DNA of 64,000 nt from Spirulina sp. Its GTDB lineage: Bacteria > Cyanobacteriota > Cyanobacteriia > Phormidesmidales > Phormidesmidaceae. This document shows positions 1 to 64,000 of this stretch, one piece after another. The notes under the pieces were generated by a model that saw nothing but the letters and a program-made list of their open reading frames with translations, was not told the DNA's origin and made no database searches. The position numbers and the translations under genes are program-made. Location of the stretch: positions 1-64,000 of the forward strand of contig JBIPSI010000016.1 of NCBI GenBank assembly GCA_044070495.1, given 5' to 3'. The first letter of the stretch is position 1; every line of letters starts with the position of its first letter.

Positions 1-80
1 TACTGCACAATCTGGTTATCATGCAGACGACGAGTCCCATTCTTGACAACGGTTTCGCTCTGGCAGTGGGGGCAACGCAT
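1..80 (-). CDS. Transposase N-terminus (Zn ribbon), partial
   Basis: Manual translation MRCPHCQSETVVKNGTRRLHDNQIVQ...; CxxC...KNG start typical of cyanobacterial IS1/IS6 transposases; not in the ORF track. Confidence 0.7.
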   Translation of the reverse strand, partial: MRCPHCQSETVVKNGTRRLHDNQIVQ

Positions 81-137
81 AGGCCAATGACGCTCTACGC
101 CTACATTCTAGCCGTCATCCTTTAACTGACCAGTGCC
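1..137 (-). mobile_element. Left end of an IS6-family-like insertion sequence, truncated by the window edge
   Basis: Minus strand begins GGCACTGGTCAGTTAAAG at 137-120 (IS6/IS26-type IRs start GGCACTG). A TAGAAT -10 follows at 110-105, then an ORF from ATG at 80. Confidence 0.65.
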
Positions 138-274
138 TAGAGACGCGGTTATCGCGCCCATCGCATGGTTTTTGGTCAGGTAACCAGTCCATGCTGTTGA
201 AGGATGGCGTCTATTACAGTAGAGTCCTGTGCATCGTGTGGCCGACCGACTTAGGAGACAAAGCGATTACTAGA

Positions 275-883
275 ATGAAACCGCCAAGTTTATTGCGATG
301 GGAACCCAGGCGACGACCATGGCGGATTGGCTTGCTCATTGGGTGTTTGGGGTGGGGCGGATTGAGCGCTCCTGGCTGGGGCATGGCTCCCAATGGGCCG
401 ATGCCTTTGGTCGATCCGGTGCCAGAGGTGGGTCGCCCTTGGGTGCCCCTGGGAGAGGCGGCGGATCATCTGCCCCAGCAAGGCGATCCGGTCTATGCCA
501 CCCATGTAGTGCTGCGGTTGTCGGAGCGACGGGTTTACCTCTACGACGGCAATCGACTGTGGGTTAGCTATCCGGTGGCCGTAGGGCGACAGGGTTGGAC
601 CACCCCCACCGGACGGTTTGTGGTGCAGCGCAAGCAGGCCGATCCCACCTGGCGGCATCCCTTCACCGGAGCATTGGTTCCCCCTGGCCCCGAAAATCCC
701 CTCGGTCGGCACTGGGTGGGCTTTTGGAGCGATGGCAACAACGTCATTGGCTTCCACGGCACCCCCCAGGAAGACTTGATTGGGCAGGCGGTGTCCCATG
801 GCTGTGTGCGAATGCGCAATGCCGATGTTGCTGAGTTTTTTGACCGCGTGCAGGTGGGCACCCCCGTCATCGTTGAACCCTAG
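275..883 (+). CDS. L,D-transpeptidase (YkuD family)
   Basis: YPVAVG, TPTG, NPLG and GFHGT...SHGCVRM catalytic motif; ATG 275 preferred (AGGAG upstream). Confidence 0.9.
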   Translation: MKPPSLLRWEPRRRPWRIGLLIGCLGWGGLSAPGWGMAPNGPMPLVDPVPEVGRPWVPLGEAADHLPQQGDPVYATHVVLRLSERRVYLYDGNRLWVSYPVAVGRQGWTTPTGRFVVQRKQADPTWRHPFTGALVPPGPENPLGRHWVGFWSDGNNVIGFHGTPQEDLIGQAVSHGCVRMRNADVAEFFDRVQVGTPVIVEP

Positions 884-934
884 GGCGACCTGGACACAAA
901 TTTTCCCTGGGGGATACTCGTGTAAAATCTGGGG

Positions 935-3475
935 ATGACTGAATCACGCCCCGTTTCCCCAACGCCCCAAATCCCCGTCCAGTCCTGGCAGCGACCCCTT
1001 GGCCAAGGCTGGGATCAGCATTACATCGTGCGCTACGCCAGCAATTTAGACGATGGCCCCTGGCATGGGGCACCGCTGGGGGGCTTTGGGGCCGGATGCA
1101 TCGGTCGCTCGCCCAGAGGGGATTTCAACCTCTGGCACATCGACGGCGGCGAGCATGTGTTTCAGACTTTCCCCGGCTGTCAGTTCAGCGTGTTTGAATC
1201 GGGCGGTGGGAAAACCCAAGCCTACGCCCTGAGTACGGAACCGCCTCAAGATGGGACGCTTTCGACCTGGAACTGGTATCCCGCTTCTACGCCAGAACGT
1301 TCCACCGGAACGTACCACGCCCTCTATCCCCGCAGTTGGTACCGCTACGAGAACGTGTTTCGGGCGGAAATTACCTGTGAACAGTTTTCCCCCATCTGGC
1401 CAAACAACTACCAGGAAGCCAGCTACCCCGTGGCGGTGTTTGAATGGACGGCCCACAACCCCACGGATCAGCCTCTCACCCTCTGCGTGATGGTGAGCTG
1501 GCAGAATATGGTGGGCTGGTTTACGAATACGCAAAAATCCCCGGAAGTGCAGCAGCGGGACGATGGCAGCCCCTACTACGACTACGTCCCCGCCCTTGGC
1601 CAAAGCCAGGGCAACTACACCCAACTGATTTCCACCGACGGCCTCAAGGGTTGCCTGATGAGCGGCGACTGGCAGCGCCTGCGAGAACCCCAGGAAGGGG
1701 ACGGTCAATGGTGCATCGCTACGCTGGATAACCCGGATATCGAAATTTCCTACGACCTGCGCTGGAACCCCGCCGGAGATGGGGCCGACCTATGGAGCGC
1801 CTGGGCCAAGCTGGGACGGCTGATGAATCTGCTAGATACCACCGCCGCCGGAGAGGGTGAACAAGTCGGTTGCGCCCTGGCCCTGCGCTTTACCCTGCAA
1901 CCGGGAGAAACGCGGCAGTTTCCCATCGTCCTGGCCTGGGATTTGCCTGTGACGGAATTTGCCGAGGGCGTCAGCGCCTACCGTCGCTATACGGACTTTT
2001 TTGGGCGGGATGGACGCAATGCTAGGGCGATTGCTCATCAAGCGTTGACAAACCACAAGGACTGGCAGCAAAGCATCACCACCTGGCAGCAGCCGATTTT
2101 AGACAGGCCCGACCTGCCCGACTGGTTCAAGATGGCCCTGTTTAACGAACTCTACGACCTGACCAGCGGCGGCACCCTCTGGAGTGCGTCCACCGAGGCC
2201 GACCCCGTGGGCCAGTTTGCGGTACTGGAATGCATCGACTATCGCTGGTACGAAAGCCTGGATGTGCGGCTCTATGGCGGCTTTGCAACCCTGCTGTTGT
2301 GGCCAGAGCTAGAAAAATCCATCCTCCGCGCCTTTGCCCAGGCCATCCCCACCCAGGACGACCGACGGCGAATCATCGGCTATTACCTGACGATAGGCGT
2401 AGAAAGCCCCCTGGCCCAGCGCAAAACCAAGGGAGCTACCCCCCACGACCTCGGTGCCCCCAACGAACAGCCCTGGGTGCAAACCAACTACACCAGCTAC
2501 CAAGACTGCAACCTCTGGAAAGACCTGGGCAGCGACTTTGTGATCCAGGTCTATCGCGCCTTTGTGTTCACTGGGGCCAACGACCTGGAATTCCTGCAAA
2601 CCTGCTGGCCTGCGGTGGTGGAAACCCTGCAATATCTCAAGCATTTCGACCGCGACGGTGACGGCATCCCCGAAAACGAGGGTGCCCCCGACCAAACCTT
2701 TGACGACTGGCGGCTCAAGGGTCTCAGTGCCTACTGCGGTGGGCTGTGGCTGGCGGCGCTAGAGGCGGCGTTGGCCATGGGCAAGATCCTGTCCGAAAAC
2801 AACCTCGCCCCCGGCACCACCCCGATTTTGCTGACCCAATACCAGCGCTGGCTAGAGGGCGGCTTCCGGGCCTATCACCCCAAACTGTGGAATGGCCGCT
2901 ATTACCGCCTGGATACGGGCAGCGGCTCTGATGTGGTGATGGCCGACCAACTCTGTGGCCAGTTTATGACGCGGCTGCTGAACCTGCCGGATTTGGTGGA
3001 GGAAGCCTGCATTCAGTCCTCCCTAGAGGTCATCTATGAGGCTTGCTTTGTTAACTTTAACCAGGTGGCCCAAACCCAGGAGCGCCCCCAGGCACAAAAG
3101 TTTGAAGGTGCTCAGGTGGGGAACTTTAGCGCTGCCACCTTAAAGCAACCCATCGGAGCCGCTAATGGCGTTTTGCCCGACGGCACCCCCGAAGACCCCG
3201 ACAGCACCCATCAACAGGAAGTGTGGACAGGGATTAACTTTGGCCTCGCCGCCTTCTATGCCCAGATGGGCCACACCGACAAGGCCATGGCCATGACTGA
3301 AGCCGTCGTCCGCCAACTCTACGACTACGGCCTGCAATTCCGCACCCCGGAGGCGATCACTGCCCTGGGTACCTATCGCGCCTGCCACTACATGCGGCCC
3401 CTGGCCATTTGGGGGCTGTATGCGATGCTGCCGACCATTGAATCTCAGTCAAATGCCAATGATTTGACGAGGTAG
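935..3475 (+). CDS. GH116 family glycoside hydrolase (GBA2-like beta-glucosidase)
   Basis: GAPLGGFGAGCIGRS, YESLDV, PDQTFDDW, EVWTG and YMRPLAIW motifs; 846 aa. Confidence 0.9.
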   Translation: MTESRPVSPTPQIPVQSWQRPLGQGWDQHYIVRYASNLDDGPWHGAPLGGFGAGCIGRSPRGDFNLWHIDGGEHVFQTFPGCQFSVFESGGGKTQAYALSTEPPQDGTLSTWNWYPASTPERSTGTYHALYPRSWYRYENVFRAEITCEQFSPIWPNNYQEASYPVAVFEWTAHNPTDQPLTLCVMVSWQNMVGWFTNTQKSPEVQQRDDGSPYYDYVPALGQSQGNYTQLISTDGLKGCLMSGDWQRLREPQEGDGQWCIATLDNPDIEISYDLRWNPAGDGADLWSAWAKLGRLMNLLDTTAAGEGEQVGCALALRFTLQPGETRQFPIVLAWDLPVTEFAEGVSAYRRYTDFFGRDGRNARAIAHQALTNHKDWQQSITTWQQPILDRPDLPDWFKMALFNELYDLTSGGTLWSASTEADPVGQFAVLECIDYRWYESLDVRLYGGFATLLLWPELEKSILRAFAQAIPTQDDRRRIIGYYLTIGVESPLAQRKTKGATPHDLGAPNEQPWVQTNYTSYQDCNLWKDLGSDFVIQVYRAFVFTGANDLEFLQTCWPAVVETLQYLKHFDRDGDGIPENEGAPDQTFDDWRLKGLSAYCGGLWLAALEAALAMGKILSENNLAPGTTPILLTQYQRWLEGGFRAYHPKLWNGRYYRLDTGSGSDVVMADQLCGQFMTRLLNLPDLVEEACIQSSLEVIYEACFVNFNQVAQTQERPQAQKFEGAQVGNFSAATLKQPIGAANGVLPDGTPEDPDSTHQQEVWTGINFGLAAFYAQMGHTDKAMAMTEAVVRQLYDYGLQFRTPEAITALGTYRACHYMRPLAIWGLYAMLPTIESQSNANDLTR

Positions 3476-3566
3476 CCTGCTTGCGGTGGAAACGGCCAAC
3501 TTAGGCCACGCAGGGAAAACTATGTCCATGGGCGGAGGTGCAGAAGATAACGATGGGAAGTAGCCA

Positions 3567-4283
3567 ATGGGGATGTTGAGGGCGGTAGATCGAGATCTGT
3601 GGGTGGCGGAGCAGCCGCTGCGCTATTTTGGCCTCAGCATTGGCACCCGGATGACGGTAGTGCGATTGGCGGGCGGTGACCTGGTGGTGATTTCGCCGAT
3701 TCAGCCCACTGATGGATTAGTTGAAGAGATCGCCGTGATCGGCCCAGTCCGGCACATTGTGGCCCCTAACCTGTACCACTATCGGTATGCGGCGGCCTTT
3801 AAGGCTATCTACCCCGATGCCGTCCTGTGGGCATCGGCGGGGCTAAGGGTTAAGCGGCCAGAATTGCCCATCGACCGCCCCATCGAACCGGATGGCCAAA
3901 GTCCTTGGGACGAGCTGGATTGTCTCTTCTTCCGTGGTCTGCAAACCCTCGCCCCCAACGGCCCCGATCCGCTAGAGGAATGGGTATTCTGCCATACCGC
4001 CAGTCGAACGCTGATCTTGACGGACATTGCCTTTAGGTTTGACGCCAGCTTTCCCTGGCTAACCCGGCTGGTGACCAGACTGGGTGGCAGTTACGACAGC
4101 CTCAGTCCATCGTTGCTGGAGCGGGTGGCCACGAAGGATGATGACCAGGTGAGAGCCTCGGTAGAGCAGGTGTTGCGCTGGGAGTTTGATCGGGTGATTG
4201 TCGCCCACGGCACCATCGTCGAGGGCGGCGGCAAAGCGCAGTTGAAGCAGGGGTATGAGGCCTTTTTGGCAGGCTCACGTTAG
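3567..4283 (+). CDS. DUF4336 family protein
   Basis: GTRMTVVRL, HIVAPNLYHY, RTLILTD, RVIVAHG. Confidence 0.85.
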   Translation: MGMLRAVDRDLWVAEQPLRYFGLSIGTRMTVVRLAGGDLVVISPIQPTDGLVEEIAVIGPVRHIVAPNLYHYRYAAAFKAIYPDAVLWASAGLRVKRPELPIDRPIEPDGQSPWDELDCLFFRGLQTLAPNGPDPLEEWVFCHTASRTLILTDIAFRFDASFPWLTRLVTRLGGSYDSLSPSLLERVATKDDDQVRASVEQVLRWEFDRVIVAHGTIVEGGGKAQLKQGYEAFLAGSR

Positions 4284-4401
4284 GCAAACTCACGTCAAAG
4301 GCAAGTCACCGATAGCCTTGAGGATTGGATTCGGGGTTGTTCTAGCTTTCCTCGGCAACGGCAAGAGGTCGGGGGTACAGCTTGCTTCCCCAGGGGGGCG
4401 G

Positions 4402-4566
4402 CTACTGCTTATACACATCTTGTCTTTGTGCCGTAAGTCCTTGGAGATCCCCCTAAATCCCCCTTATGAAGGGGGACTTTGAATCCATTTTCCCCCTTCA
4501 TAAGGGGGGCTAGGAGGGATCAACCCTAGGAACTCAGTGAAATAGAGATTTATGTATAGGCGGTAG
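4402..4566. mobile_element. MITE-like element enclosing a CCCCCTT...AAGGGGG hairpin pair
   Basis: Imperfect TIR CTACTGCTTATACAC / ATGTATAGGCGGTAG (12/15); flanks GGGGGGCGG and AGGGAGCGG (7/9, possible TSD); internal repeat 4446-4522. Confidence 0.6.
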
Positions 4567-5465: not shown

Positions 5466-5495
5466 AGTGTTTGTCGTCCTAGCGTGTGAACCGAC

Positions 5496-6341
<846 letters not shown>

Positions 6342-11950: not shown

Positions 11951-12040
11951 AGTCCCGTACTCCAACGTGATAAACAATTTTTTGGCCGTGCTTATCCTAG
12001 CCTTGGTCAATCACAACCATCCTTTTGTGACCAGAGCTAG

Positions 12041-12130
12041 CCCTCACCCTAAATCCCTCTCCCACGGGGAGAGGGACTTTGATCGACGCTTGATCCCCTC
12101 TCCCTGGGGGAGAGGGGCTGGGGGTGAGGG
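12041..12130. repeat. Dispersed hairpin-pair repeat (CCCTCACCC...TCCCTCTCCC...GGGAGAGGG...GGGTGAGGG)
   Basis: Two nested inverted hairpins; a single related unit at about 38613-38650. Confidence 0.85.
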
Positions 12131-16937: not shown

Positions 16938-16981
16938 TCGCTGGGGTTGGTGATACCTGGGTATGTGTCACGTCTAGGCGG

Positions 16982-17193
16982 CTGGCTGACTGACACAACG
17001 CCGAAAAGCCTCAATTTCTCGTAGGTTGGGTGGCGCGATAGCAGAACCCAACAAGCCCAAAGTCTTCGGCGAGCGTTGGGTTCCGCTTCGCTGCACCCAA
17101 CCTACAAGCTGCGGGTGAAGGGTGCTAGGGTATCTGAGCGCTGTGGCCAACCCGAACTGAGGTTAGGTTAGCGCAGTTTTGTTCGTCAACTAG
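16982..17193. mobile_element. MITE family A, longer copy (212 bp) containing a REP doublet
   Basis: Ends CTGGCTGACTGACACAA / TTTTGTTCGTCAACTAG; inverted GTAGGTTGGG...CCCAACCTAC pair at 17021-17052 and 17075-17105; TCTAGGC in both flanks. Confidence 0.65.
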
Positions 17194-21948: not shown

Positions 21949-22041
21949 GGAAAACCTCCGGAGGGACGCACCAGGATCCTTAGTCTATCGGAGTTTGGGG
22001 CTAAGGCAATGGAGATTTTGGGCCTTTCCAAAGCGGTCTGC

Positions 22042-23229
22042 CTAGGATGCGGTTTCGGTTTGCCAATAGCGATAGCTGCTGTAGGCCATGGTGATCACGC
22101 CCGTAACAATGGCCGATTCATCCACTTCAAACTTGGGGTGGTGGAGGGGATGATTAATGGCCCGATCCGTGAAGCCAACCCCCAGGCGAAACATGGTGCC
22201 GGGGGCATGTTCTAGGTAGAGGGCGAAGTCTTCGGCCCCCAGGGAGGGTTCGTGGATGAGTTGGAGGGCTTGATCGCCGAGGGATTCGCTGACGCAGCGG
22301 GCCATCAACTCGGTGAGAGCAGGGTCGTTAATCACCGAGGGAACGCCCCGTCGATAGGTGATTTCGTACTTAGCTCCGTAGGGCTGGCACACCCCGGCCA
22401 CAATGGTTTCAATCCACTGGGGCAGGTGGTTGCGGGTGTCGGGGTGGAGAGAACGCACGGTGCCGGAGAGCTTCACCGTGTCGGCGATCACGTTGGGGGC
22501 GCGGCCACCGCTGATTTGGCCAATGGTGAGGACGATGGGGTGCAGCGGATTTTGGGTGCGGCTGATCGACTGCTGAAGGGTGGTCACCACCTGGGCGGCA
22601 ATCCAGATCGCGTCGATAGCTTCGTGGGGGCGAGCACCGTGGCCCGATTCGCCGATGATGGTAATGTCCAAATCGTCCGCCGCCGCCGTCAAGGCTCCGT
22701 AGCGAATGCCGATGGTGCGGGCGGGCACCGAGGGGTAGGCATGGAGGCTAAAAATGGCGGAGACATCGGCCATTACCCCATCCTCAATCATCCAGCGGGC
22801 ACCCTGGGCGGTTTCCTCGGCGGGCTGAAACAAAAAACGCAACGTCCCCGGCAGGGGCACCCCCAACTGAGACAGCACCATCGCCGTCCCCAGGCCCACG
22901 GTGGTATGCACATCGTGGCCGCAGGCGTGCATCATGCCCGATTGGGTAGAGGCAAACTCCAGATCCACCCGCTCAGGAATGGGTAGCGCATCCATATCGG
23001 CCCGAATCGCCAGGATTTTGCTGGGGTCTTGCCCCGCCAGTTCCGCCACCACCCCAGTTTTGCCCACCAATTCCTGCACCCGCAACCCGCAGGAAGACAG
23101 CACCCCCGCCACGTAGGCCGCTGTTTTATACTCCTGACCACTCAGTTCCGGGTGGCTGTGCAGGTGGCGACGAATTTCAATCAGGCGAGGGGTCAGCGTT
23201 TTGGCAAGGGTCTGGATTTCGCGCAGCAT
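22042..23229 (-). CDS. M20 family amidohydrolase
   Basis: RADMDALP, MHACGHD, FQPAEE, AEDFA, LHHPKF. Confidence 0.93.
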   Translation of the reverse strand: MLREIQTLAKTLTPRLIEIRRHLHSHPELSGQEYKTAAYVAGVLSSCGLRVQELVGKTGVVAELAGQDPSKILAIRADMDALPIPERVDLEFASTQSGMMHACGHDVHTTVGLGTAMVLSQLGVPLPGTLRFLFQPAEETAQGARWMIEDGVMADVSAIFSLHAYPSVPARTIGIRYGALTAAADDLDITIIGESGHGARPHEAIDAIWIAAQVVTTLQQSISRTQNPLHPIVLTIGQISGGRAPNVIADTVKLSGTVRSLHPDTRNHLPQWIETIVAGVCQPYGAKYEITYRRGVPSVINDPALTELMARCVSESLGDQALQLIHEPSLGAEDFALYLEHAPGTMFRLGVGFTDRAINHPLHHPKFEVDESAIVTGVITMAYSSYRYWQTETAS

Positions 23230-33816: not shown

Positions 33817-35301
33817 CTAGCGCCCTCCGACGGTGATGGAGTCTACCTTGAGGTGAGGCTGGCCCACGGTGACGTAGACACTGCCGCTGATGGAGCCGCA
33901 GAAGCCCGCCGCGAGGCCGAGGTCGTTGGAACACATGGAGATTTTGTTCATGATCTCGGTGGCTTCGCCGATCAGGGTGGCACCCTTGAGGGGTTTGGTG
34001 ATTTTGCCGTTTTCGATTAGGTAGGCTTCATCGACGCCGAAGTTGAATTGGCCCGTGGCTCCGACGCTGCCGCCGCCCATCTTTTTGCAGTAGATGCCCT
34101 TGTCCACGGAGGCGAACAGCTCGTCCAGGGAATAATCCCCAGGGGCGATGTAGGTGTTCCGCATCCGGGAGGCGGCGGCGTGGGTATAGCCCTGGCGGCG
34201 ACCGCTGCCCGTGCGGGGGTGGCCCGTCCGCATGGAACCTGCTCGGTCGGAGAGGAAGTTCCGCAGAATGCCGTTTTCGATCAGCAGGGTGCGCTGGGCG
34301 GGCATTCCTTCGTCGTCCATGTCGATGGTGCCAAAGGCGTCGGGGGAGAGGCCCTCATCCCAGGCTGTGAGGTTTTCGTGGGCGATTTTTTCGCCTTTTT
34401 TGTCGATGAAGGGGGTGGTGCCCCGCTCGATCTGGGTGGTTTCGAGCAGGTGGCCGCAGGCTTCGTGGAAGATCACGCCCCCGAACTGGTTGGCCATAAT
34501 CACTGGATAGCTGCCGGATTCCACATAGTCGGCGTAGAGCATCTTTCCAGCGGATTCGCCCACGGATTGGGCCACGGTTTCGTAGTCCCACTCGCGCAAA
34601 AAGGCGGGGTTGCTGGTGTCGCCCGCCCGCTGGCCAATGGAGGAACGGTGTTCGCCATCGGCACAGAGCAGGTTGTAACCGACGGACTGGGTGAGGCGAA
34701 TGTCGCGGGCAAAGGTGCCATCGCTGGCGGCCACCAGGACTTCCTGCCAATCGCGGAAATAGACGGCGCGGCGAGATTGCACATGGCTGGCGTTTTTGGC
34801 CAGGGCGTCGTTAGCGGCGAGGAGCACATCGCCCATTTCCTGCATGGAGCTACAGTTGGCCAGCCATTCGTCCTTAGAGCGAGCGCTGGCGTAGTCGCGC
34901 AGCAGTTCGAGGTTAATTTCGGAAATATTTGCCGCTGGCCCCGGCAGGGTGAGGCCCATGATACCCAGCGCCTTATCTAGGGCGGATTTCAACCCCTGAA
35001 AACTCAGGTCATTGGTGCTGACGTAGCAATCGGCCTTGCCCAAAAACACCCGCACCCCGGCCCCGGTGATGATGCGCGGCGAAATGCTGGTAATCGCGTC
35101 GTCCTCGGCCTGACAGCTAATGTAGTTGCTGCGCTCTAGGAAAAACTCCACAAAATCAGCCCCCGCCGACCGTCCCAGGCCCAGCAGCGCCGCTAGGGTG
35201 GGTTCCCAGGAGAGGTCAAAGCGGTTTCGGGTGGCCCCGTATTCCCTAGAAAGCAGGTCGTTGGTCTTCAGCAGCGGGGTGAGTGAGGGTGCAACCGTCA
35301 T
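33817..35301 (-). CDS. tldD: TldD metalloprotease
   Basis: [33 protein letters not shown]...VGQPH. Confidence 0.93.
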
Positions 35302-43548: not shown

Positions 43549-43612
43549 CGAAAGATGATGTGGGCCGCGAATCCTCGAAACTTCGCCGCTGCCTAGGCTA
43601 AAATTGACAGCT

Positions 43613-44197
43613 ATGAATAGCGAACTCGACTACTCCCTTCCCCCCGCCGTACGCCGTATTGCCACCGCCTTTCGGTGGACGGGCTGGATCAGCTTTTGGA
43701 TTCAGGTGGTGTTGGCCACCGTATCTAGCCTTGTCCTGTTGTTTGCCTTAATCAGCATTGGGGCGCGGACATCGGTGGGTGGTGCCAATCCGGGAACAGG
43801 GGTCGGGGTGTTTCTGGCCCTAGCAGGGGTGGTGGCGGTCTATGTCAGTATTTACTGGGCCTTTCGCTATGCCCTGTTGGGTCGTCGTTTGCGTAGCCGC
43901 GATGCTAGCAAACGCCCCAGCCCCAAGGATGCCATCCAAGCCCTACGCATTGGCATCATCATCAGCATGGTGGGCATGTTGTTGACCCTGTTTGGGGGCC
44001 AAGCATTGATTGGATCGCTGCTGGGCAAGGCGCTGCTGCAACCCCAAGGCGGCACCGTTTTCATGCCCGGAAACATCAACCAATACGTAGAAGCCTTCGA
44101 TATTTTCATCGTTCAGGCCAATACCAACACGTTACTCGCCCATTTTGTTTCCCTATCGTCCACCCTCTGGCTACTACGCGTCGTCAATCGCGCCTAG
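43613..44197 (+). CDS. DUF3611 (Tic21/PIC1-like) membrane protein
   Basis: GWISFWIQVVL, DIFIVQANTNTLLAHF. Confidence 0.88.
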   Translation: MNSELDYSLPPAVRRIATAFRWTGWISFWIQVVLATVSSLVLLFALISIGARTSVGGANPGTGVGVFLALAGVVAVYVSIYWAFRYALLGRRLRSRDASKRPSPKDAIQALRIGIIISMVGMLLTLFGGQALIGSLLGKALLQPQGGTVFMPGNINQYVEAFDIFIVQANTNTLLAHFVSLSSTLWLLRVVNRA

Positions 44198-44244
44198 GAA
44201 CTCGGTAAGATAGGGGCGCAGGTTGTGAGGACAGGGCCACTGAA

Positions 44245-49768: not shown

Positions 49769-49853
49769 CGCTCAATATGAGCTCAATATGATCAGACGAT
49801 CCCCAGTGACGATGGAGGTAAAAGTCGATTCTTGTGAGTCAGATTAAGGATAA

Positions 49854-49925
49854 CTGGGGTGCTAGGATTCGAACCTAGGAATGGCGGGACCAAAACCCGC
49901 TGCCTTACCACTTGGCGACACCCCA
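49854..49925 (-). tRNA. tRNA-Gln (anticodon UUG), CCA not encoded
   Basis: Minus strand TGGGGTGTCGCCAAGTGGTAAGGCAGCGGGTTTTGGTCCCGCCATTCCTAGGTTCGAATCCTAGCACCCCAG folds into a cloverleaf. Confidence 0.97.
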
Positions 49926-49941
49926 TTGCGTTGCCTTTCGT

Positions 49942-49972
49942 AATATAGCAGGTTTATCCGGCCCAATGTCAA
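49942..49972 (-). promoter_or_regulatory. Putative sigma70-type promoter of tRNA-Gln
   Basis: TTGACA (49972-49967) and extended -10 TGCTATATT; the 19-nt spacer is longer than optimal. Confidence 0.5.
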
Positions 49973-50120
49973 GCTTTTTTGATGGACTTTTTTAGGACAG
50001 GTTGGATGGATCAGAGGGCGCTAAAAAAATAGCGTTTCGTCCTTGGGGGCCGCCGAGGTCGCGTGGCCGATTGGTATAGTAGGGAGATATTTTCAGCCGA
50101 TCCCCCTTGGTGAAACGCCC

Positions 50121-52956: not shown

Positions 52957-53150
52957 CAACAACCGACAACCAATAACCCTGGTTGACTGACAAAACTTGC
53001 GAGAACCCAAATCCGCCAAAGGGTCAGGAGACCTGACCCCTACATTATCCAAATCCTGTAGGGGCGCGGTTTCCGCGTCCGGCGCAGGATCTTTTGTCAG
53101 TCAACCAACCAACAACCAATAACCAATAACCAACAACCAATAACCAACAA
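52957..53150 (+). repeat. CCAA(T/C)AA heptamer array interrupted by a MITE
   Basis: Heptamer units on both sides of 52979-53108. Confidence 0.8.
52979..53108. mobile_element. MITE family A, copy 2 (inverted relative to copy 1)
   Basis: 16-bp perfect TIR TGGTTGACTGACAAAA / TTTTGTCAGTCAACCA; flanks CCAATAACC / CCAACAACC. Confidence 0.85.
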
Positions 53151-56334: not shown

Positions 56335-56553
56335 AGCGGGTACCGTCGAACACCGCTGTTATCTTGCCATACCCCCAGGGTCAATCCGGCAGGATTTCCC
56401 ATCGATCCCTAGCCCAGCCTTAGCCCAGGGGAGCGCTTGAGGGGAGGTCGTGTGCTTTTGGCAGGGTGGAAAAGAGGGGATGTCTGGTGGGTTGAATGCC
56501 TCTGATTTTAGGGATGCCCTAGGATGGTGGCAGGACGAACGACCGAGGCGGCA

Positions 56554-57390
56554 ATGACCAATCTGAACGCGGCGATTTTGGGATGTGGCTATGTGGGCCA
56601 AGCGGTGGCAGAGGTGTGGCGTCGTCAGGGAATCACCGTAACCGCGACCACTACGCGACCAGAGCGTCTAGCCAATCTAAAAACCGTCGCAGATCGGGCC
56701 ATGGTGGTGAATGGATCCGATGAAGCTACCGTGGCAGAATTGTTGACCGATCAACAGGTGCTTTTGATTTGTGTGGGGGCCGGACGGCAGGCGGACTATC
56801 GAGAAACCTATCTGAACACGGCTAAAACCGTGGTGAGTGCCCTAGCCCAAGCACCCAGCCTGCGGCAGATTATCTTCACCAGCACCTACTCGGTCTACGG
56901 CAACCACAGCGGGGCCTGGGTGCGAGAGGATGATCCCGCCCAACCTGCCACGGAAAACGGGAAAACCACGCTGGAAACCGAGCAGGTCTTGCTGTCGGCA
57001 GCGACGGCACAGCGGCAGGTCTGTGTGTTTCGGCTGGGGGGCATCTACGGCCCAGGGCGAGAACTGGCCAAAATCTACGGTCGGGCGGCGGGCACCACCC
57101 GACCCGGCAGCGGCCAGGAGGCCAGCAATTGGATTCACCTAGACGACATTGTGGGGGCGATAGATTGGGCGCAAACCCACGGGCTGAGCGGCCTCTACAA
57201 CCTGGTGCAGGATGAAATCCCCACCGTGCGCGACCTGATTGACCGAGTTTGCCAAACCCATCAGTTGGCCCCTGTTGAATGGGATCCCTCCCAACCCAGC
57301 GCTCGCCCCTACAATGTGCGCGTGGCTAACCAAAAGCTCAAGGCCGCTGGCTACCCCTTTCGCCATCCTAGTTTCAGCGAACTGGCCTAG
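56554..57390 (+). CDS. NAD-dependent epimerase/SDR family protein
   Basis: ILGCGYVG, FTSTYSVYG, RLGGIYGPGR, NWIHLDDI. Confidence 0.88.
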   Translation: MTNLNAAILGCGYVGQAVAEVWRRQGITVTATTTRPERLANLKTVADRAMVVNGSDEATVAELLTDQQVLLICVGAGRQADYRETYLNTAKTVVSALAQAPSLRQIIFTSTYSVYGNHSGAWVREDDPAQPATENGKTTLETEQVLLSAATAQRQVCVFRLGGIYGPGRELAKIYGRAAGTTRPGSGQEASNWIHLDDIVGAIDWAQTHGLSGLYNLVQDEIPTVRDLIDRVCQTHQLAPVEWDPSQPSARPYNVRVANQKLKAAGYPFRHPSFSELA

Positions 57391-58001
57391 GCCCCTAGAC
57401 CCTGTTCCCCAAGCACCTGCTTGCGTTTGGCATAGATGCTTTTGAGGTGCCGTTTGACGGTATTCACACTGATATATAGGGCCTGGGCAATGGCCTCGTA
57501 GCTTTGGTTGGCCTGCCGCAGCACCCAAACCTCCCGTTCGCGAGGGGTGAGGTTGTAGCGCAGGGCTTCGATGCGAGCCATGGCCTCGGCGGTTTGGGTC
57601 GGATCGTCCAGCAGCACCACCAGGTAAGAGTCCTCTGTAGCGGGCCAATCGAGCCACTGCACTCGAACCTGGATACTCTGTCCATCGCCATCCATTAAGT
57701 CTTGGCTGAGCACCAGGGCATGATCGGGAAAAATAGCCCGTCCTTCAATTAAGTGGTGACCCATCGCCCAAACCCTGGGCGGCACAGGCAGCGGGGCATG
57801 GATATCACCCTGGGGCGGGGTAGCGGGGCAAAGCCGACGGCAAAGACGTTGGCCCTGGTGGTTGTGGTGTAGGCAGGTGCCGTCCTGGGCCAAAATCAGC
57901 ACCCCAGCGGCAAATCCTTCTAGCACAGCACTGACGAAGGAAAAGTCTGGCTGGGGGGCGGGGCGCAGACGAGAGGGAGAGAATGAACTCAGCATGACCA
58001 T
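57387..58001 (-). CDS. LuxR-type HTH regulator with a PAS-like N-terminus
   Basis: LTPREREVW...SYEAIAQALYISVNTVKRHLKSIYAK; start uncertain. Confidence 0.85.
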   Translation of the reverse strand: MVMLSSFSPSRLRPAPQPDFSFVSAVLEGFAAGVLILAQDGTCLHHNHQGQRLCRRLCPATPPQGDIHAPLPVPPRVWAMGHHLIEGRAIFPDHALVLSQDLMDGDGQSIQVRVQWLDWPATEDSYLVVLLDDPTQTAEAMARIEALRYNLTPREREVWVLRQANQSYEAIAQALYISVNTVKRHLKSIYAKRKQVLGEQGLGA

Positions 58002-58361
58002 GGGGGCTACCAAATAAATCACAGCAACGAACGCAGGAACGGAAAGTGAGTCATCCACATCCAGAAAATCTGGCTCAGGGGGCACGTTTTGGATAGGGAG
58101 AACCCCAACGCAACCGGGGGATTTTCCGTACCTGGGGGCCAGTTCCTAAATTGGATGACTGAATTTACGTAGGTGTCTGGATCGGGTACAAAATGCCATG
58201 CCTCCGGTTTCCAAGTGATCAAACCCTAGGGATGCGGTCTCCTCGCCCGCCTCAGTTGGATTGCAGAAGACCAGTGATTCGCTTCTCCTGATCCCTTTGC
58301 CGTCAGGAGCCTTGGGATAGAACATCGTGGTACAACAAAGAAGGTTTAGCGGAACCAGCCC

Positions 58362-59714: not shown

Positions 59715-59778
59715 CAGGGCGAAGGCATGATTCCCGATCACCTAGGCTGGACGGCCAGGGGCTAACGATAGCAGGGGG

Positions 59779-59955
59779 CTAGATCCCATCGGAGACTTCT
59801 ACCCGCTTGGCAAAGAGTTCGCCATCAAAGGGCTGAACGCCAATGGCGGGATAGTTATCGTCGCTAGGGCCAAAAATGCGGGCAATGGGATCGACAAAGT
59901 ATTGGGTCAGCCCGTCTAAAAAGTAGCCAAAAACCGAAAGTTTAGAGCGTTTCAT
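59779..59955 (-). CDS. 58-aa NirP1-like small protein (below the ORF-track cutoff)
   Basis: MKRSKLSVFGYFLDGLTQYFVDPIARIFGPSDDNYPAIGVQPFDGELFAKRVEVSDGI; GAGG 8 nt before ATG. Confidence 0.8.
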   Translation of the reverse strand: MKRSKLSVFGYFLDGLTQYFVDPIARIFGPSDDNYPAIGVQPFDGELFAKRVEVSDGI

Positions 59956-59980
59956 AGGTGCTACCTCATCGGGTGTGAAG

Positions 59981-59994
59981 GTCTGGATATTGAC
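59981..59994. promoter_or_regulatory. Possible NtcA-like site (GT-N10-AC) near the predicted TSS of the small ORF
   Basis: GTCTGGATATTGAC, just downstream of minus-strand -10 TAGCTT (60006-60001). Confidence 0.35.
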
Positions 59995-60050
59995 ATCCCT
60001 AAGCTAGTCAGAGTAGGGATAAGGAACCCATTTATCCAATAATGCAGCGC

Positions 60051-60069
60051 TATCAAGACGCGATTGATA
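60051..60069. promoter_or_regulatory. NtcB/LysR-type site ATC-N11-GAT
   Basis: TATCAAGACGCGATTGATA palindrome upstream of the small ORF. Confidence 0.6.
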
Positions 60070-60725
60070 GGATTTAAAGGAGAGAAATGAACATCCAAGA
60101 AATCACCCTATCTCTAAAACGGGATTCGCTGCATGGATTGATATGAGGAAATTACGGTTGTTGAATTAGCGATATTTGATGGGGCTAAATAAACCTAAAC
60201 TTCCTACACTCTCTAACACTTTTATACTAAGAGATCGGCTCTATCCCATTCCATCTGTGGTGACTATTCTTTACAGAGTATGGCCATTAATGATAAACCG
60301 ACTTCACCGGAGGGCGAGGTCAGCGATACGGTCGCTAGGCGCTCAGAGGTCAACCCATCGGACTAGGGCTACAGAGACTGGCTGACACAATGCCGAAGCC
60401 CATTTGCACCGCTGGCCCCACCCACGGGGTTGATGGGGCAACCCATGGGCTACGACAGCCCTGAATTTCTCCGGACGGGGGCGATGTTCCATTGGATTCC
60501 TAGGATTGGGAGACAACCGTGAACGGTTGTAACGGCGAATTGTATAGAGATCCTTCATTTTCTGGCCATTGGGCATGAAATAGGTAGGGCCACGAAATGG
60601 TATGTTGGATCGGGTTCAAACTGGTGGTAAACCAGTCAGCATTCGGGGGTAGGTCTACCAGACGAGGTTGACTCCGCTGGGTCAGTCCTCACAGGTGTTG
60701 ATTTTCCGTAGTTTCTGAGATCGCC

Positions 60726-62345
60726 ATGCTAAGTGCGCTCCTTGCCTTAACGTTTTCACCGGTCTTTGCTCAGGTTCCTCAGGCCGAGATTGCCGCTTCG
60801 GATCCAGCCGAGACGGTGATTCTCTCCCGTGATGGCACCTACGCTGAGGTGATTCGGCGGCAAGAAGTACGGTCTCTTCCCGGTAGCCTGGATGAGGTGC
60901 CGGTGTTTAATAGCAACAGCCCTGAGGTGGTGCAGCAGGAGGGGATTCTGCTATCCACCTTTCCGCCGGAGGGTATGACCACGGCGGCGGCTCACCTCAA
61001 CTATTCCTTTAACGGGCGTTTTGACATTTTTGCCCACCACATCGCCCGTGGCCTCAATCCTGACGACCGACGCACGCTGTTTTTGGGCGTTGTGATCTAC
61101 AACCCTAACGATGAACCCGTTACGGTCACCATCGATCAAGGGGTAAGCTATCTCAGCCAGGAGGCTCCCTTCCTCGAATTGCCCGATATGCGCCTGAGCA
61201 CTAACGGCAACGTATTTGCTGGCCCCGGCAGCCGCACCGCCACCGATATGCTGCGGGGGGCCACCCAACCTCACTGGCCGCGCTCCATCACCATCCCACC
61301 CGGCCATGTTCACCTATTGATGAACACGCCCATTCCGCTGCGGCAGTTGACCGTACCCGTAAACGGCAGTCATCCCCAGGGGGCCATGATCCCCAAACCG
61401 CCGATCCGTCCAGTCACGGTCTCAGCGGCCTCAGAACAGATCAACTTAGATAGCAACGGGGAGGTCTTGCCGCCGCCCCGGCCCGTTGAGCGGCCTATCC
61501 CCAGCAATGGCCGCACCGCCATGATGTATCTGACCAGCAGCGGCCCCGTGCATGTGGCCAGCTTAGCCAAGTATGCCGACCGCACCGCCTCCGGGGACGA
61601 AAAGGTACCCACCCTCAGCGACTGGATTCGGATCCTCAAGCAGGGACGGCTGGCGGGGCCTCGGGATATTCCCCCTTCTGATCCCAACACCTATCGCTTT
61701 GGTCGCTTCTACTATGGCCGAGTAGCGGGCGTAGCGAAGGGATCCTCCTGGCAGGCCACCCTCACCGACAACCCAGAGGCTGAGGTGCTGACGGTGCCGC
61801 CCCCGGGCAATTCCTTCTCCTATGTAGTTAGTTCTGTGGATCGCAATACCTTTGGCACGGGGCAAATTCAAAGTGCCCCCATGGTGGCCCGCTATCCCGA
61901 TACGGCCTTCCGTGCCCACGGCAACTACGGCGTGCGCTACAGCCTCGATCTGCCCCTCTACAACAACACCGGCACCGCCCAAACCGTTAGCATCAAGTTT
62001 CAAACCCCCATGCAAGACGATAACTTAGTGGCTGGGTTGCGGTTCCGTCGTCCTCCCGAAAATCGAATTTTCTTCCGGGGGACGGTACGCCTGCGGTTCA
62101 AAAACCAAATGGGCCTTGAACAAACTCACTACGTCCACCTCGTGCAGCGACGGGGGCAGGAGGGTGAGCCTTTGCTGCGGTTCACGGTGCCCCCAGAAAC
62201 CCGTCGAGACTTGGCGGTGGATCTAATCTACCCCGCCGATGCCACCCCGCCCCAGGTGCTAACGATCTTTAACGGCGCAAACCGTCCGGTTTTCGGGGCT
62301 AGTGATGCCTCTGTGGTGCCAGCCCTCAGTCAAGAACCCCCCTGA
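60726..62345 (+). CDS. DUF3370 family protein
   Basis: PVFNSNSPE...GILLSTFP, YGRVAGV, AHGNYGV, YPADATPPQVLT. Confidence 0.9.
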   Translation: MLSALLALTFSPVFAQVPQAEIAASDPAETVILSRDGTYAEVIRRQEVRSLPGSLDEVPVFNSNSPEVVQQEGILLSTFPPEGMTTAAAHLNYSFNGRFDIFAHHIARGLNPDDRRTLFLGVVIYNPNDEPVTVTIDQGVSYLSQEAPFLELPDMRLSTNGNVFAGPGSRTATDMLRGATQPHWPRSITIPPGHVHLLMNTPIPLRQLTVPVNGSHPQGAMIPKPPIRPVTVSAASEQINLDSNGEVLPPPRPVERPIPSNGRTAMMYLTSSGPVHVASLAKYADRTASGDEKVPTLSDWIRILKQGRLAGPRDIPPSDPNTYRFGRFYYGRVAGVAKGSSWQATLTDNPEAEVLTVPPPGNSFSYVVSSVDRNTFGTGQIQSAPMVARYPDTAFRAHGNYGVRYSLDLPLYNNTGTAQTVSIKFQTPMQDDNLVAGLRFRRPPENRIFFRGTVRLRFKNQMGLEQTHYVHLVQRRGQEGEPLLRFTVPPETRRDLAVDLIYPADATPPQVLTIFNGANRPVFGASDASVVPALSQEPP

Positions 62346-62425
62346 TCGCAATAATTGGCTTCCTCAAATCTAGTAGCGCTATATTGGCTAAAGATTCGAG
62401 GCCCATGGTGGGTGAGGAAATTGTT

Positions 62426-62890
62426 ATGGCTGGGAAAAAGACCAACTGGCTACCGGGCGTCGTTAGCCGAGATCGACTTCAGCGCTCCTATCTGTGGGGT
62501 GGTGGGCTAGCCCTCGTCGTTCTATTCCTAGTGGGCTGCGGAACCAATAGTTCGGCCCCTGGTGACGCCACCAATCATTCCGCTGGTACCGAGGTGGTAG
62601 CCGCTACCCCAGAGGCATCCCTCGCTCAACATCTTGCGGCCACGGGGGGCACCATGTATGGAGCCTACTGGTGCCCCCACTGCGCCGATCAAAAGGCCAT
62701 GTTTGGCGATGCCGTGGATCAACTACCCTACGTAGAATGCGCTGCCGATGGGGAGAATGCCCAACCGGATCTCTGTAGTGCGAAGGGAATTCAGGCCTAT
62801 CCCACCTGGGAAATTAACGGCCAACTCTATCCCGGCGTTAAATCCCTAGAGGATTTAGCGCAGCTCTCGGGCTATCAACCAGCCCCATAG
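62426..62890 (+). CDS. Thioredoxin-like (VKOR-associated type) lipoprotein
   Basis: Lipobox LVGC; MYGAYWCPHC.DQK.MFG, YVEC, YPTWEING; start uncertain. Confidence 0.85.
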   Translation: MAGKKTNWLPGVVSRDRLQRSYLWGGGLALVVLFLVGCGTNSSAPGDATNHSAGTEVVAATPEASLAQHLAATGGTMYGAYWCPHCADQKAMFGDAVDQLPYVECAADGENAQPDLCSAKGIQAYPTWEINGQLYPGVKSLEDLAQLSGYQPAP

Positions 62891-62946
62891 CTCTGACAAT
62901 CGGAGCCTTGGCCGATTCCTAGGCTGTTGTCTCATTCCTTAAGCCC

Positions 62947-63306
62947 TTGCACGACCCCAGTTCCCACGCCCACGCCCATGACACCTTCACGCCCCCAGAA
63001 GGCCAGATTGACGGCCAAAGGGTGGTGCACCCCCACGTCCACGACCCGGAATCTCTGCGGAGCATTGTGAACCGTCTATCCCGGATTGAGGGCCATATTC
63101 GCGGCATCAAAACCATGGTGCAGGAAAGCCGCCCCTGCCCTGATGTGCTGGTTCAAATTGCGGCGGTGCGGGGGGCGCTAGATCGGGTGGCCCGCGTTAT
63201 TTTGGATGAGCACCTAACGGAATGCATCAGCCGCGCCGCCGAAGTCGGCAATATTGACGATGAAATTGCTGAACTCAAAGCAGCTCTGGATCGCTTCTTG
63301 CCGTAA
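62947..63306 (+). CDS. CsoR/RcnR-family metal-sensing repressor (InrS-like)
   Basis: His-rich N-terminus, HPHVH, NRLSRIEGHIRG, CPDVLVQIAAVRGAL, EHLTEC. Confidence 0.88.
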   Translation: MHDPSSHAHAHDTFTPPEGQIDGQRVVHPHVHDPESLRSIVNRLSRIEGHIRGIKTMVQESRPCPDVLVQIAAVRGALDRVARVILDEHLTECISRAAEVGNIDDEIAELKAALDRFLP

Positions 63307-63487
63307 CCCTGACCCTAACCCGCTTGGATGATGCACAGCACCCATTCCTGTACCACTGGGCAGGGTTATAGCATCTTTGGCCTCGGCACCGAACGAGTTG
63401 TAAAGCAGTTCCAAGTCAGCCGCCAGTTCGACGATAGAGTAGTTGGAGCACAAACTCGCTCTCGCCTGGGGATTTAGGCCGATTTTC

Positions 63488-64000
63488 TCACTTTAGATAG
63501 GCCTGTGCCCAACCATATCGGGTCGGGTCTTTTTTAAGAAGGTATTCAACGACTTCTCTTCGTTTTGCCTTTTCCTTCGTCATTTTCACAATTCTTGCAA
63601 TTTCATCATCGGTATCATTAGCACCACGCTCTACAGCCAAATCAAACCACTGATCACCCTCAGTATATTCACCTCGGTCATAGTGAATAGCGCCCATAAG
63701 GGTGTATGGCTGGTGGCTTTCAGGCTGGCAATCCATGGCCTCAGCAGCGCAGTTTTCAGCATCTTTAAGCTGATCTAGGTCTCGGAATGCGGCTCCCCTT
63801 GTCACCCAAAGTGCTGATTTCAAGTCAGATTCTCGAACTTTTTGCCAGTTCACCTTTCGTGTGGAGTCGAGTGCCTTTTCAGATTCGTTTGCCTTGCGCC
63901 AATGGCTACTTGCGCTCGGTAAATTCCAGAGATTTCCTGTCCTCTGATATTCCTCCTCATAAAATATGGCCTCTAGCCTATGGTAGGCCATCGCTATCTT
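63488..64000 (-). CDS. TPR-containing protein, 5'-truncated by the window edge
   Basis: TPR-like helices; frame open to the window end; AT-richer than neighbours. Confidence 0.75.
   Translation of the reverse strand, partial: KIAMAYHRLEAIFYEEEYQRTGNLWNLPSASSHWRKANESEKALDSTRKVNWQKVRESDLKSALWVTRGAAFRDLDQLKDAENCAAEAMDCQPESHQPYTLMGAIHYDRGEYTEGDQWFDLAVERGANDTDDEIARIVKMTKEKAKRREVVEYLLKKDPTRYGWAQAYLK

Follow-up and report, generated by a model that had tools for sequence, protein, structure and literature searches.

CCTAGG sites in the window

The window, i.e., the whole stretch of 64,000 bases analyzed here, belongs to a genome labeled G000 and contains 46 dispersed copies of CCTAGG (0.72 per kb; Table 1), together with 119 CCTAG and 101 CTAGG pentamers; the highly iterated palindrome HIP1 and CGATCG were both absent. 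With genes called at a threshold of at least 100 aa, 22 of the 46 sites were located within genes, 19 fell outside such genes, and 5 supplied a TAG stop codon. The first of these stops closes an ORF whose product is L,D-transpeptidase-like, with a score below the curated cut-offs. A sequence-only reading had reported about 45 sites against about 20 expected, spread over genes, intergenic DNA, and stop codons and accompanied by many CCTAG and CTAGG pentamers, and the recount agreed with it on each of these points and on all seven coordinates that it had quoted. Base composition predicts 20.3 sites, and models built on dinucleotides, trinucleotides, and pentamers predict 18.2, 38.0, and 47.5, respectively. 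CTAG itself occurred 255 times against a trinucleotide expectation of 281.7.

Table 1. Positions of CCTAGG sites and of the phylogenetic marker gene in the window
Feature	Position	Strand	Description
CCTAGG, starts 1-16	879, 4525, 4879, 5495, 5614, 6421, 6554, 8473, 9553, 11308, 12151, 13696, 14504, 14589, 15059, 15266
CCTAGG, starts 17-31	19231, 21625, 22041, 23253, 24517, 25692, 25728, 26505, 28171, 37503, 37926, 43592, 44193, 45529, 46597
CCTAGG, starts 32-46	47216, 48638, 49874, 52764, 53189, 55862, 56518, 57386, 58225, 59049, 59397, 59475, 59741, 60499, 62918
CCTAGG	879..884	+	TAG stop of ORF 191-883
CCTAGG	5495..5500	-	TAG stop of ORF 5496-6254 (minus strand)
CCTAGG	22041..22046	-	TAG stop of ORF 22042-23229 (minus strand)
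CCTAGG	44193..44198	+	TAG stop of ORF 43604-44197
CCTAGG	57386..57391		overlapping TAG stops of convergent ORFs 56524-57390 (plus) and 57387-58085 (minus)
TldD-like gene	33817..35301	-	phylogenetic marker defining the HIP1-poor clade; outside the motif system

Genome-wide frequency and coding context of CCTAGG

The genome carried 2,989 CCTAGG sites (563 per Mb), where about 300 per Mb are expected by chance for a hexamer, and the observed/expected ratio (O/E) was 1.86, 2.02, 1.17, and 0.93 at Markov orders 0, 1, 2, and 4, respectively. The doubling relative to base composition is thus real and beyond chance. Correction by trinucleotides or pentamers brought the ratio close to 1, and codon shuffling left it at 2.24; the refuting condition set in the sequence-only reading, a ratio near 1 after codon and trinucleotide correction, thus had a divided outcome. 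For CTAG (21,263 copies; O/E 1.06, 1.57, and 0.97 at orders 0, 1, and 2), the reported abundance held insofar as the tetramer shows no depletion; beyond its own trinucleotides, it shows no enrichment either. CCTAGG ranked 209 of 4,096 hexamers by count and was exceeded in O/E by CCATGG (2.31) and TGGCCA (3.13). The coefficient of variation of its gaps (1.16) was similar to that of control words (1.06-1.22), a measure of dispersion only.

Within genes, the sites were concentrated in one frame, in which 1,486 formed C-CTA-GG leucine codons (hyphens separate codons), with 199 in another frame and 0 in the third, in which the word would be a stop; 289 sites were stop codons. The density was 1,034 per Mb in non-coding DNA vs. 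454 per Mb in coding DNA, and the non-coding O/E was 1.63 after trinucleotide correction and 1.08 after pentamer correction (maximal order). CC/GG and CTA/TAG are both abundant in G000; TAG makes up 53% of its stops, and leucine is commonly encoded by CTA ahead of codons that start with G. Together, these features account for most of the CCTAGG excess over base composition.

Other sources of the word were rejected. A dispersed repeat is not involved, as just 51 of the 2,989 sites lay in repeated 20-mers, and neither is a ribosome-binding site: in the regions preceding 2,469 ATG starts, GGAG and TAGGAG peaked sharply and CCTAGG did not. A longer palindrome built around CCTAGG was dismissed as well: no flanking base exceeded 47%, and the best CCTAGG-based octamer, CCCTAGGG, with an O/E of 4.86 on base composition, fell to 1.07 at maximal order. 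No 7- or 8-mer stood out as some other replacement, the top octamers being triplet repeats such as CCGCCGCC.

The HIP1-poor clade and the CTWGG/CCWGG shift

G000 belongs to a HIP1-poor clade of seven genomes among Nodosilinea-like cyanobacteria (53 genomes in the genus), which formed a single branch with 100/100 support in the tree of the TldD-like marker. CCTAGG density in the clade (454-635 per Mb) was ∼2.4 times that of the 46 congeners (median 222 per Mb), so that most HIP1-bearing relatives carry fewer sites and the equal frequency that would have spoken against the sequence-only reading was not observed. The CCTAGG/CCCAGG ratio was 0.42-0.60 inside the clade and 0.17-0.18 in its nearest relatives (G036, G003, and G014), so that the clade state is derived. 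The HIP1-rich congener G011, with a ratio of 0.47, overlaps the clade, and four HIP1-rich genomes from other genera had ratios above that of G000. A coupling of CCTAGG to HIP1 density was rejected, rho across the 46 congeners being -0.13 for density and +0.28 for the ratio.

When G000 was set against a pooled 0.8-Mb sample of seven HIP1-rich congeners, CCTAGG showed the largest rise among 2,080 hexamers (2.89-fold) and CCTAG the largest among pentamers (2.13-fold), with CCAAG in third place (1.81-fold); GCTAG, TCTAG, and ACTAG stayed inside the congener range. The difference between clade and congeners was confined to CTAGG/CTTGG vs. CCWGG at the second position: CTAGG and CTTGG rose ∼2-fold, CCWGG fell by ∼20%, and the A and G variants at that position rose 1.3- to 1.4-fold, whereas first- and fifth-position variants were not raised (0.80-1.08). 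For the G000/congener change in the T/C ratio of the second base, C[T/C]AGG and C[T/C]TGG came first and second among 256 contexts of five bases. By within-genome residuals, the two held places 256 and 254 in congeners (0.55 and 0.59) and places 127 and 160 in G000 (0.98 and 0.93). The trinucleotide O/E of CTAGG was 1.08-1.15 in the clade (n = 3), 0.46-1.00 in congeners (n = 7), and 0.80-1.18 in other genera (n = 7), with congener pentamer and codon figures drawn from 40-200 kb per genome; CTAGG was below 0.85 in six and CTTGG below 0.95 in all of the seven congeners. The anomaly, i.e., a CTWGG deficit with a CCWGG surplus, sits in most of the sampled congeners, and the clade is near neutral, like other cyanobacterial genera. 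The clade shift represents one evolutionary event.

Very-short-patch repair by Dcm/Vsr leaves a pentamer pattern in which CTAGG and CTTGG are low and CCWGG is high. The congener pattern shares the motif, position, and direction of this signature, in which CTAG is turned into CCAG (PMC4687349, PMC5337935), and the clade resembles the same genus minus that bias; G000 itself (O/E 1.11 for CTAGG, 1.04 for CTTGG, and 1.02 for CCWGG) lacks such a deficit and surplus. Compared with the Dcm/Vsr case, the congener deficit is milder, variants with A or G in this position are also somewhat low, and searches of the genus revealed neither Vsr nor, among the enzymes scanned, a Dcm-like protein.

The enzyme inventory that the sequence-only reading had called for yielded no Dcm, no Vsr, and no CTAG or CCTAGG methyltransferase. 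Vsr endonuclease was above the Pfam cut-off in 0 of 53 genomes, with G056 giving the single weak match (E 0.0014). Of the C5 enzymes matched, 12 were scanned and none was Dcm-like: against a cut-off of 710 bits for NF007772, the best scored 156 and that of G000 50. NucS was found in 0 of 5 genomes searched. Several enzymes were rejected as separators of the two groups: UDG (one copy in each of five genomes), HhH-GPD glycosylases (two each in G000, G042, and the HIP1-rich G059), DUF559 (none in G000 yet present in the clade member G042), the Dam family (5 of 5 genomes), the genus-conserved beta-class methyltransferase (found in both groups), and MutL (5 of 6 clade genomes searched, apparently missing from G000). 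The 461-aa methyltransferase L046 was present in the three nearest relatives and in 0 of 7 clade genomes, but it was missing from 35 of the 46 congeners.

Origin of the CCTAGG excess

The best reading is that CCTAGG is a fast-turning-over by-product of composition and not a new repeat replacing HIP1. It is probably unselected and arises from the loss of the genus-level CTWGG deficit together with TAG stops and CTA leucine codons. A bias restoring CCWGG, by T-to-C repair or conversion or by protection of the inner C, may have acted in the genus and would have stopped on the clade stem, after which the words would have relaxed to a new balance. CCTAGG would have risen most because it contains both CTAGG and CCTAG and could be fed from both CCCAGG and CCTGGG. 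Several points stand against this explanation: no enzyme was found for the congener deficit, G000 retains a residual excess (2.24 after codon shuffling; in non-coding DNA 1.63 after trinucleotide and 1.08 after pentamer correction), the CTA share and the pairwise forward flux at C-CTR-G are high (see below), the shift happened once, and the HIP1-rich G011 overlaps the clade.

The sequence-only reading had also proposed deamination of C(m5C)WGG in the absence of Vsr repair. Here, a methyltransferase of the Dcm/EcoRII type that the clade carried over long periods, at present or formerly, would create a hot spot turning CCWGG into CTWGG. The motif and position were as predicted and Vsr was absent, but the direction looks reversed and no Dcm-like protein was seen among the scanned enzymes. 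Restriction systems do come and go and leave traces (PMC4687349). The CTA share at C-CTR-G was the highest of 16 contexts (0.43), and it was 0.43 in 3 of 3 clade genomes. The pairwise forward flux at C-CTR-G was 0.23, as against 0.085 at G-CTG-G and 0.15 at C-CTG followed by A or C (an excess of 2.7-fold and ∼1.5-fold, respectively), with a back rate that was not lowered (0.32 vs. 0.33 at G-CTA-G); by this flux, a weak hot spot may exist. Polarization of changes by orthologs (three-way alignment, ∼20,000 shared codons) gave 15 gains vs. 14 losses at C-CTR-G, so that, at these small counts, gains about equaled losses and no clear CCWGG hot spot emerged; the gain rate was 0.176 vs. 0.149 at C-CTG-H, and relative to C-CWG-H it was just 1.2-fold (Leu) and 1.1-fold (Gln), again on small counts. 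Also against a hot spot are the near-neutral C[T/C]WGG residuals of G000, the lack of CCWGG depletion, the parallel rise of the A and G variants, and the fact that the sole C5 methyltransferase found in G000 adjoins an Eco29kI-family endonuclease. Deamination is an unlikely source of the excess.

Restriction-site avoidance offers another route, in which the purging of ∼20 palindromes would leave CTA before G among the remaining synonymous escapes, with CCTAG filling the space. The near-total avoidance of these palindromes is the strongest word signal in the genome and is far stronger in the clade than in its relatives: in 5.3 Mb, GGCGCC occurred 8 times, CGGCCG 8, CCGCGG 7, and GTCGAC 11, GGWCC had an O/E of 0.07, and CTCGAG, CCCGAG, and CCCGGG were strongly avoided. 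The GGWCC neighbors CGTCC, GATCC, and GGACA were among the most raised pentamers, and CCTAGA (Leu-Asp/Glu) was retained more than CCTAGG (0.56 vs. 0.31). The Eco29kI family targets CCGCGG. G000 has this one matching system and another clade member a SinI-family system, in line with the traces that lost restriction systems leave (PMC4687349), but, unlike such traces, CCTAGG shows no avoidance and the reduction of CCWGG is slight. Avoidance leaves unexplained why the second-position variants of CCWGG alone rose, and it is in non-coding DNA that the excess peaks. Site avoidance probably contributes to the excess and is insufficient alone; as the explanation of it, it is decidedly improbable.

There is a slim chance that a Vsr- and Dcm-independent repair or gene-conversion activity restored CCWGG in the Nodosilinea group and was lost on the branch on which HIP1 was lost, so that one machinery may build both signatures. 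If so, the candidates for the HIP1 generator would be those genes that the HIP1-rich sisters keep and the seven-genome clade lacks.

Comparison with highly iterated palindromes

CCTAGG was compared with HIP1 (GCGATCGC) and the alternative HIPs GGGATCCC, TCGATCGA, GGCGCC, rCCGGy, GCsGC, and CAGGCCTG (PMC4390886, PMC5861425). Like these, it is a palindrome dispersed in and between genes of a cyanobacterium lacking HIP1, and its 563 sites per Mb touch the low end of the HIP density range of 500-2,500 per Mb (PMC4390886). HIP1 enrichment is 16- to 317-fold (PMC5861425), whereas CCTAGG reached ∼2-fold, is explained by its sub-words, and was neither a clear outlier for its word length nor enriched in all three frames and non-coding DNA, being absent from one frame. 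Its conservation was below that of control words: 82 of 363 sites (23%) were retained in sister genomes vs. 41% for other hexamers. For HIP1, at similar identity, 164 of 196 sites (84%) were retained vs. 33% for its control, at two loci and in non-independent genomes. The methyltransferases of G000 comprise one of the Dam family, one genus-conserved beta-class enzyme, the C5 enzyme beside the Eco29kI-family gene, and two large unassigned ones; judged by sequence, none found in this 97% complete assembly points to CTAG or CCTAGG.

The proposal that CCTAGG serves as an alternative HIP, generated and maintained by a site-specific methyltransferase/repair system in place of HIP1, is already refuted on enrichment and conservation and is scarcely credible, even though CCTAGG is the most raised hexamer and all seven HIP1-poor genomes exceed the congener median, since its O/E is at most 1.86 on base composition, no methyltransferase is assignable to it, its density does not follow that of HIP1 across the 46 congeners, the HIP1-rich G010 carries 478 sites per Mb, and the CTAG O/E is higher in G020 (1.24), where HIP1 reaches 2,286 per Mb, than in G000 (1.06).

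As a claimed new HIP, the CCTAGG count has no importance; it is a mere marker of the clade shift. The clade, with its HIP1 loss, strong site avoidance, and probable loss of a CCWGG-favoring bias, forms a natural comparison for asking what creates HIP1. Loss of HIP1 enrichment has been published for Leptolyngbya sp. BL0902 of the Nodosilineales, the order to which G000 also belongs, and section 8 of that report gives no replacement motif for the strain (PMC13756078). Unlike in that report, the loss is placed here on a seven-genome clade within a 53-genome genus, with the CCWGG/CTWGG shift falling on the same branch; neither is described in that section. BL0902 also provides the best named homolog of one G000 methyltransferase, at 78% identity.

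CCTAGG in the window and the genome

The window contains 46 copies of CCTAGG. Base composition predicts 20.3, dinucleotides 18.2, trinucleotides 38.0 and the two overlapping pentamers 47.5. A reading of the sequence alone had claimed about 45 sites against about 20 expected from mononucleotides; both figures and all the coordinates it quoted were correct, and the excess that it observed is confirmed. In the whole assembly (5.31 Mb, 74 contigs, 97% completeness), the word occurs 2,989 times, with observed/expected ratios (O/E) of 1.86, 2.02, 1.17, and 0.93 at Markov orders 0, 1, 2, and 4. It ranks 209 by count among the 4,096 hexamers and is exceeded in count and in ratio on base composition by CCATGG (3,725; 2.31) and TGGCCA (5,042; 3.13). 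The sequence-only reading took CTAG to be usually rare, which is true of bacteria in general (under-representation in 55.4% of site-genome pairs; PMC4687349, accessible part); here, CTAG is not depleted (O/E 1.06, 1.57, and 0.97 at orders 0, 1, and 2), and the most over-represented trinucleotides are ATC/GAT (1.30) and CTA/TAG (1.27).

Our gene calls gave 4,031 genes (81% coding). With hyphens marking codon borders, the 2,989 sites divide into 1,486 C-CTA-GG leucine codons, 199 in the CCT-AGG frame, 280 across a gene boundary and 1,024 beyond the called genes. Of all the sites, 289 are CC-TAG-G stop codons. TAG makes up 53% of stops, against 48% in congeners, HIP1-rich members of the genus (HIP1 being the usual cyanobacterial highly iterated palindrome, HIP). 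After within-gene synonymous codon shuffling, the O/E was 2.24 (2.46 in two related HIP1-poor genomes and 0.81 in HIP1-rich congeners). In non-coding DNA (1,034 sites per Mb), it fell from 3.91 with base composition as the expectation to 1.63 with trinucleotides and 1.08 with pentamers. Codon usage alone thus does not remove the excess, whereas pentamer content does. Repeats hold 51 of the sites, and no preferred flank was found around the genomic sites.

Features observed in the window
Position	Feature	Remark
57386-57391	Overlapping TAG stops of two convergent genes	Share one CTAG
12034-12130	Dispersed non-coding repeat, ~100-160 bases	Many copies in this genome or relatives; size range and copy status also apply to the four rows below
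4400-4566	Similar short dispersed non-coding repeat	
16980-17109	Similar short dispersed non-coding repeat	
49841-49982	Similar short dispersed non-coding repeat	
52969-53117	Similar short dispersed non-coding repeat	

Distribution among relatives

Homologue names place this genome among Nodosilinea-like cyanobacteria. The genus comprises 53 genomes, of which seven are HIP1-poor (5-148 sites per Mb; 104 sites in this genome) and 46 carry 366-1,298 per Mb. A tldD tree of 35 rows, covering 31 of the 53 genomes and four outgroups, groups the seven on a single branch (support 100/100) with G036 as sister. That one strain of Nodosilineales has lost HIP1 enrichment is already in the literature (PMC13756078, accessible part). 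In this clade, CCTAGG occurs at 454-635 per Mb (median 525) against 118-478 in the congeners (median 222), with CCTAGG/CCCAGG ratios of 0.42-0.60 against 0.10-0.47; the three nearest relatives show 0.17-0.18, so the clade state is derived. The trait does not follow HIP1, as rho between CCTAGG and HIP1 over the 46 congeners is -0.13 for density and +0.28 for the ratio. In 12 genomes from outside the genus, the ratio ranges from 0.06 to 1.26 and is at least 0.71 in four HIP1-rich ones; in G020, with 2,286 HIP1 per Mb, CTAG O/E in a 60-kb sample is 1.24, above that of this genome.

Two clade members, G050 and G045, retain HIP1 at 148 and 45 per Mb, compared with 5-21 in the remaining five, which may reflect slower decay or binning contamination; they also have the lowest clade CCTAGG/CCCAGG ratios (0.42). 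In G023, a HIP1-rich genome of another family (loci L280-L282), CCWGG O/E is 0.32 and CTTGG/CCTGG is 4.9; given this strong avoidance, cyanobacteria differ greatly in their CCWGG/CTWGG balance.

Anatomy and direction of the word shift

This genome and 400 kb each of clade members G042 and G005 were compared with 0.8 Mb pooled from seven congeners. CCTAGG was the top riser of 2,080 hexamers (2.89-fold); among pentamers, CCTAG rose most (2.13-fold) and CCAAG third (1.81-fold). The CCTAG-containing hexamers in the top list all rose 2.1- to 2.2-fold irrespective of flank, and GCTAG, TCTAG, and ACTAG stayed within the congeners' range. The larger rise of CCTAGG than of CCTAG presumably arises because it has two parents, CCCAGG and CCTGGG. 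CCWGG fell to 0.79; its second-position variants were raised (T, 2.13 and 1.73; A and G, 1.30-1.43), and those at the first and fifth positions were not (0.80-1.08). In the C_G context, CTA accounted for 0.43 of CTR codons in three of three clade genomes against 0.09-0.29 in congeners.

To see which side is anomalous, T/C ratios were predicted from neighboring base pairs and residuals ranked over 256 contexts. C[T/C]AGG and C[T/C]TGG gave 0.55 and 0.59 in the congeners (ranks 256 and 254) and 0.98 and 0.93 in this genome (ranks 127 and 160); the non-coding values were 0.71 and 0.68 against 1.14 and 0.97. On trinucleotides, the clade has CTAGG O/E of 1.08-1.15, compared with 0.46-1.00 in seven congeners and 0.80-1.18 in seven other genera; for CCWGG, its O/E of 0.98-1.02 lies below the congeners' 1.08-1.42. 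The clade looks like other cyanobacteria, and most of the sampled congeners appear to be the unusual side. Their words resemble the pattern ascribed to very-short-patch repair, in which CTAG is turned to CCAG (PMC4687349 and PMC5337935, accessible parts). The reading that we consider probable is that a genus-level deficit of CTWGG would have been lost in the clade, with the CTA/TAG-rich background adding CCTAGG. No such word shift was found in literature on CCTAGG, on CCWGG, Vsr, or CTAG in cyanobacteria, or on HIP1 in BL0902, mostly non-subscription main texts; the CCWGG/CTWGG anatomy of the shift and its direction are what this analysis adds.

Substitution rates and a possible CCWGG hot spot

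A past or weak m5C hot spot at CCWGG producing CTWGG words, the deamination without Vsr repair proposed by the sequence-only reading, appears unlikely. Its motif was correct, as the shifted words are those of the CCWGG second position. Pairwise G-to-A flux at C-CTG-G (0.23) exceeds that at C-CTG-A and C-CTG-C (0.15) and at G-CTG-G (0.085). Changes polarised with G042 as outgroup (~20,000 codons) gave leucine gain rates of 0.176 (C_G), 0.149 (C_H), 0.073 (D_G), and 0.040 (D_H) and glutamine rates of 0.143, 0.128, 0.069, and 0.118. In one of three further triplets (this genome, G057, and outgroup G042), the leucine gap was larger (10/22 against 4/34), but the triplets have sites in common and the counts are small. 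A strong hot spot is not evident, and a weak one may exist. Pairwise back flux was 0.32 against 0.33, so CCTAG is unprotected, and in the polarised set C-CTR-G showed gains at 15 of 50 sites and losses at 14 of 30; the clade is at steady state with fast turnover.

Nor was Dcm found: 12 scanned C5 enzymes scored at most 156 bits against the model cut-off of 710. The absence of Vsr stood, with none of the 53 genomes passing its cut-off, and none of NucS, UDG, HhH-GPD, DUF559, and MutL separates clade from congeners. Two family searches and tblastn found no mutL in this genome, in which mutS is present (C10). Five other clade genomes carry mutL, and the genes that neighbor it in relatives lie mid-contig at separate places here; the absence may be a real loss or an assembly gap.

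Palindrome avoidance

About 20 palindromic hexamers are almost absent from this genome, far more than in congeners; G042 and G005 share this avoidance, which is much stronger than that of the congeners. In 5.3 Mb, there are 8 sites of GGCGCC, 8 of CGGCCG, 7 of CCGCGG, and 11 of GTCGAC, and O/E is 0.07 for GGWCC, 0.17 for GCCWGGC, 0.19 for GCCSGGC, and ~0.18 for GCCNGGC. The sole C5 methyltransferase adjoins an Eco29kI-family endonuclease, whose target we take to be CCGCGG, which fits the few CCGCGG sites left; it was the only restriction system found here that matches the avoided palindromes. The avoidance is consistent with traces left by many restriction systems (PMC4687349, accessible part), and some leucine codons are probably driven to CTA by it. 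That the CCTAGG excess is simply a by-product of it seems rather improbable.

CCTAGG as a proposed replacement HIP, and methyltransferases

HIPs are described as strongly enriched (16- to 317-fold for HIP1), present at 500-2,500 per Mb, better conserved than controls in every frame and matched by a methyltransferase (accessible parts of PMC4390886 and PMC5861425); of these characters, CCTAGG shows the density but neither the enrichment nor the conservation. In genes aligned with G042 and G005 (84% identity), it was retained in 82 of 363 cases (23%) against 41% for other hexamers. In HIP1-rich congeners at 84% identity, HIP1 was retained at 164/196 (84%) against 33%, a control from two loci of related genomes with non-independent cases. 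With amino acids fixed, C-CTA-GG was retained at 72/235 (0.31), lower than C-CTA-GA (282/501) and higher than G-CTA-GG (10/54). The proposal that CCTAGG replaces HIP1 is therefore rejected as highly implausible, given its weak enrichment, below-average conservation and lack of an assignable writer among the enzymes found. No other replacement word was prominent among the word counts of this genome.

Besides the C5 enzyme, this genome encodes one Dam-family, one beta-class and two large unassigned methyltransferases. C5 enzymes occur in 24 of the 53 genomes, in patchy families. Among the enzymes found, with specificities inferred from families only, none could be assigned to CCTAGG or to the congeners' CTWGG deficit.

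A 461-aa methyltransferase (L046 and L245-L256) occurs in 11 of 53 genomes (G010, G036, G061, G056, G013, G043, G060, G014, G051, G003, and G059); one homologue is labelled N4-cytosine-specific. Its carriers have intermediate HIP1 (366-829 per Mb), and it is missing from the HIP1-poor clade and from every genome with more than 900 per Mb. It is possibly the m4C CGATCG enzyme of PMC4390886 (accessible part). The solitary beta-class methyltransferase (L039 on contig C27 of this genome; also L042, L298, and L299) is present in almost every genome of the genus. G005, G045, and G050 were found to carry a divergent form of it (~60% identity) at a different locus, which suggests replacement under selection to keep function.
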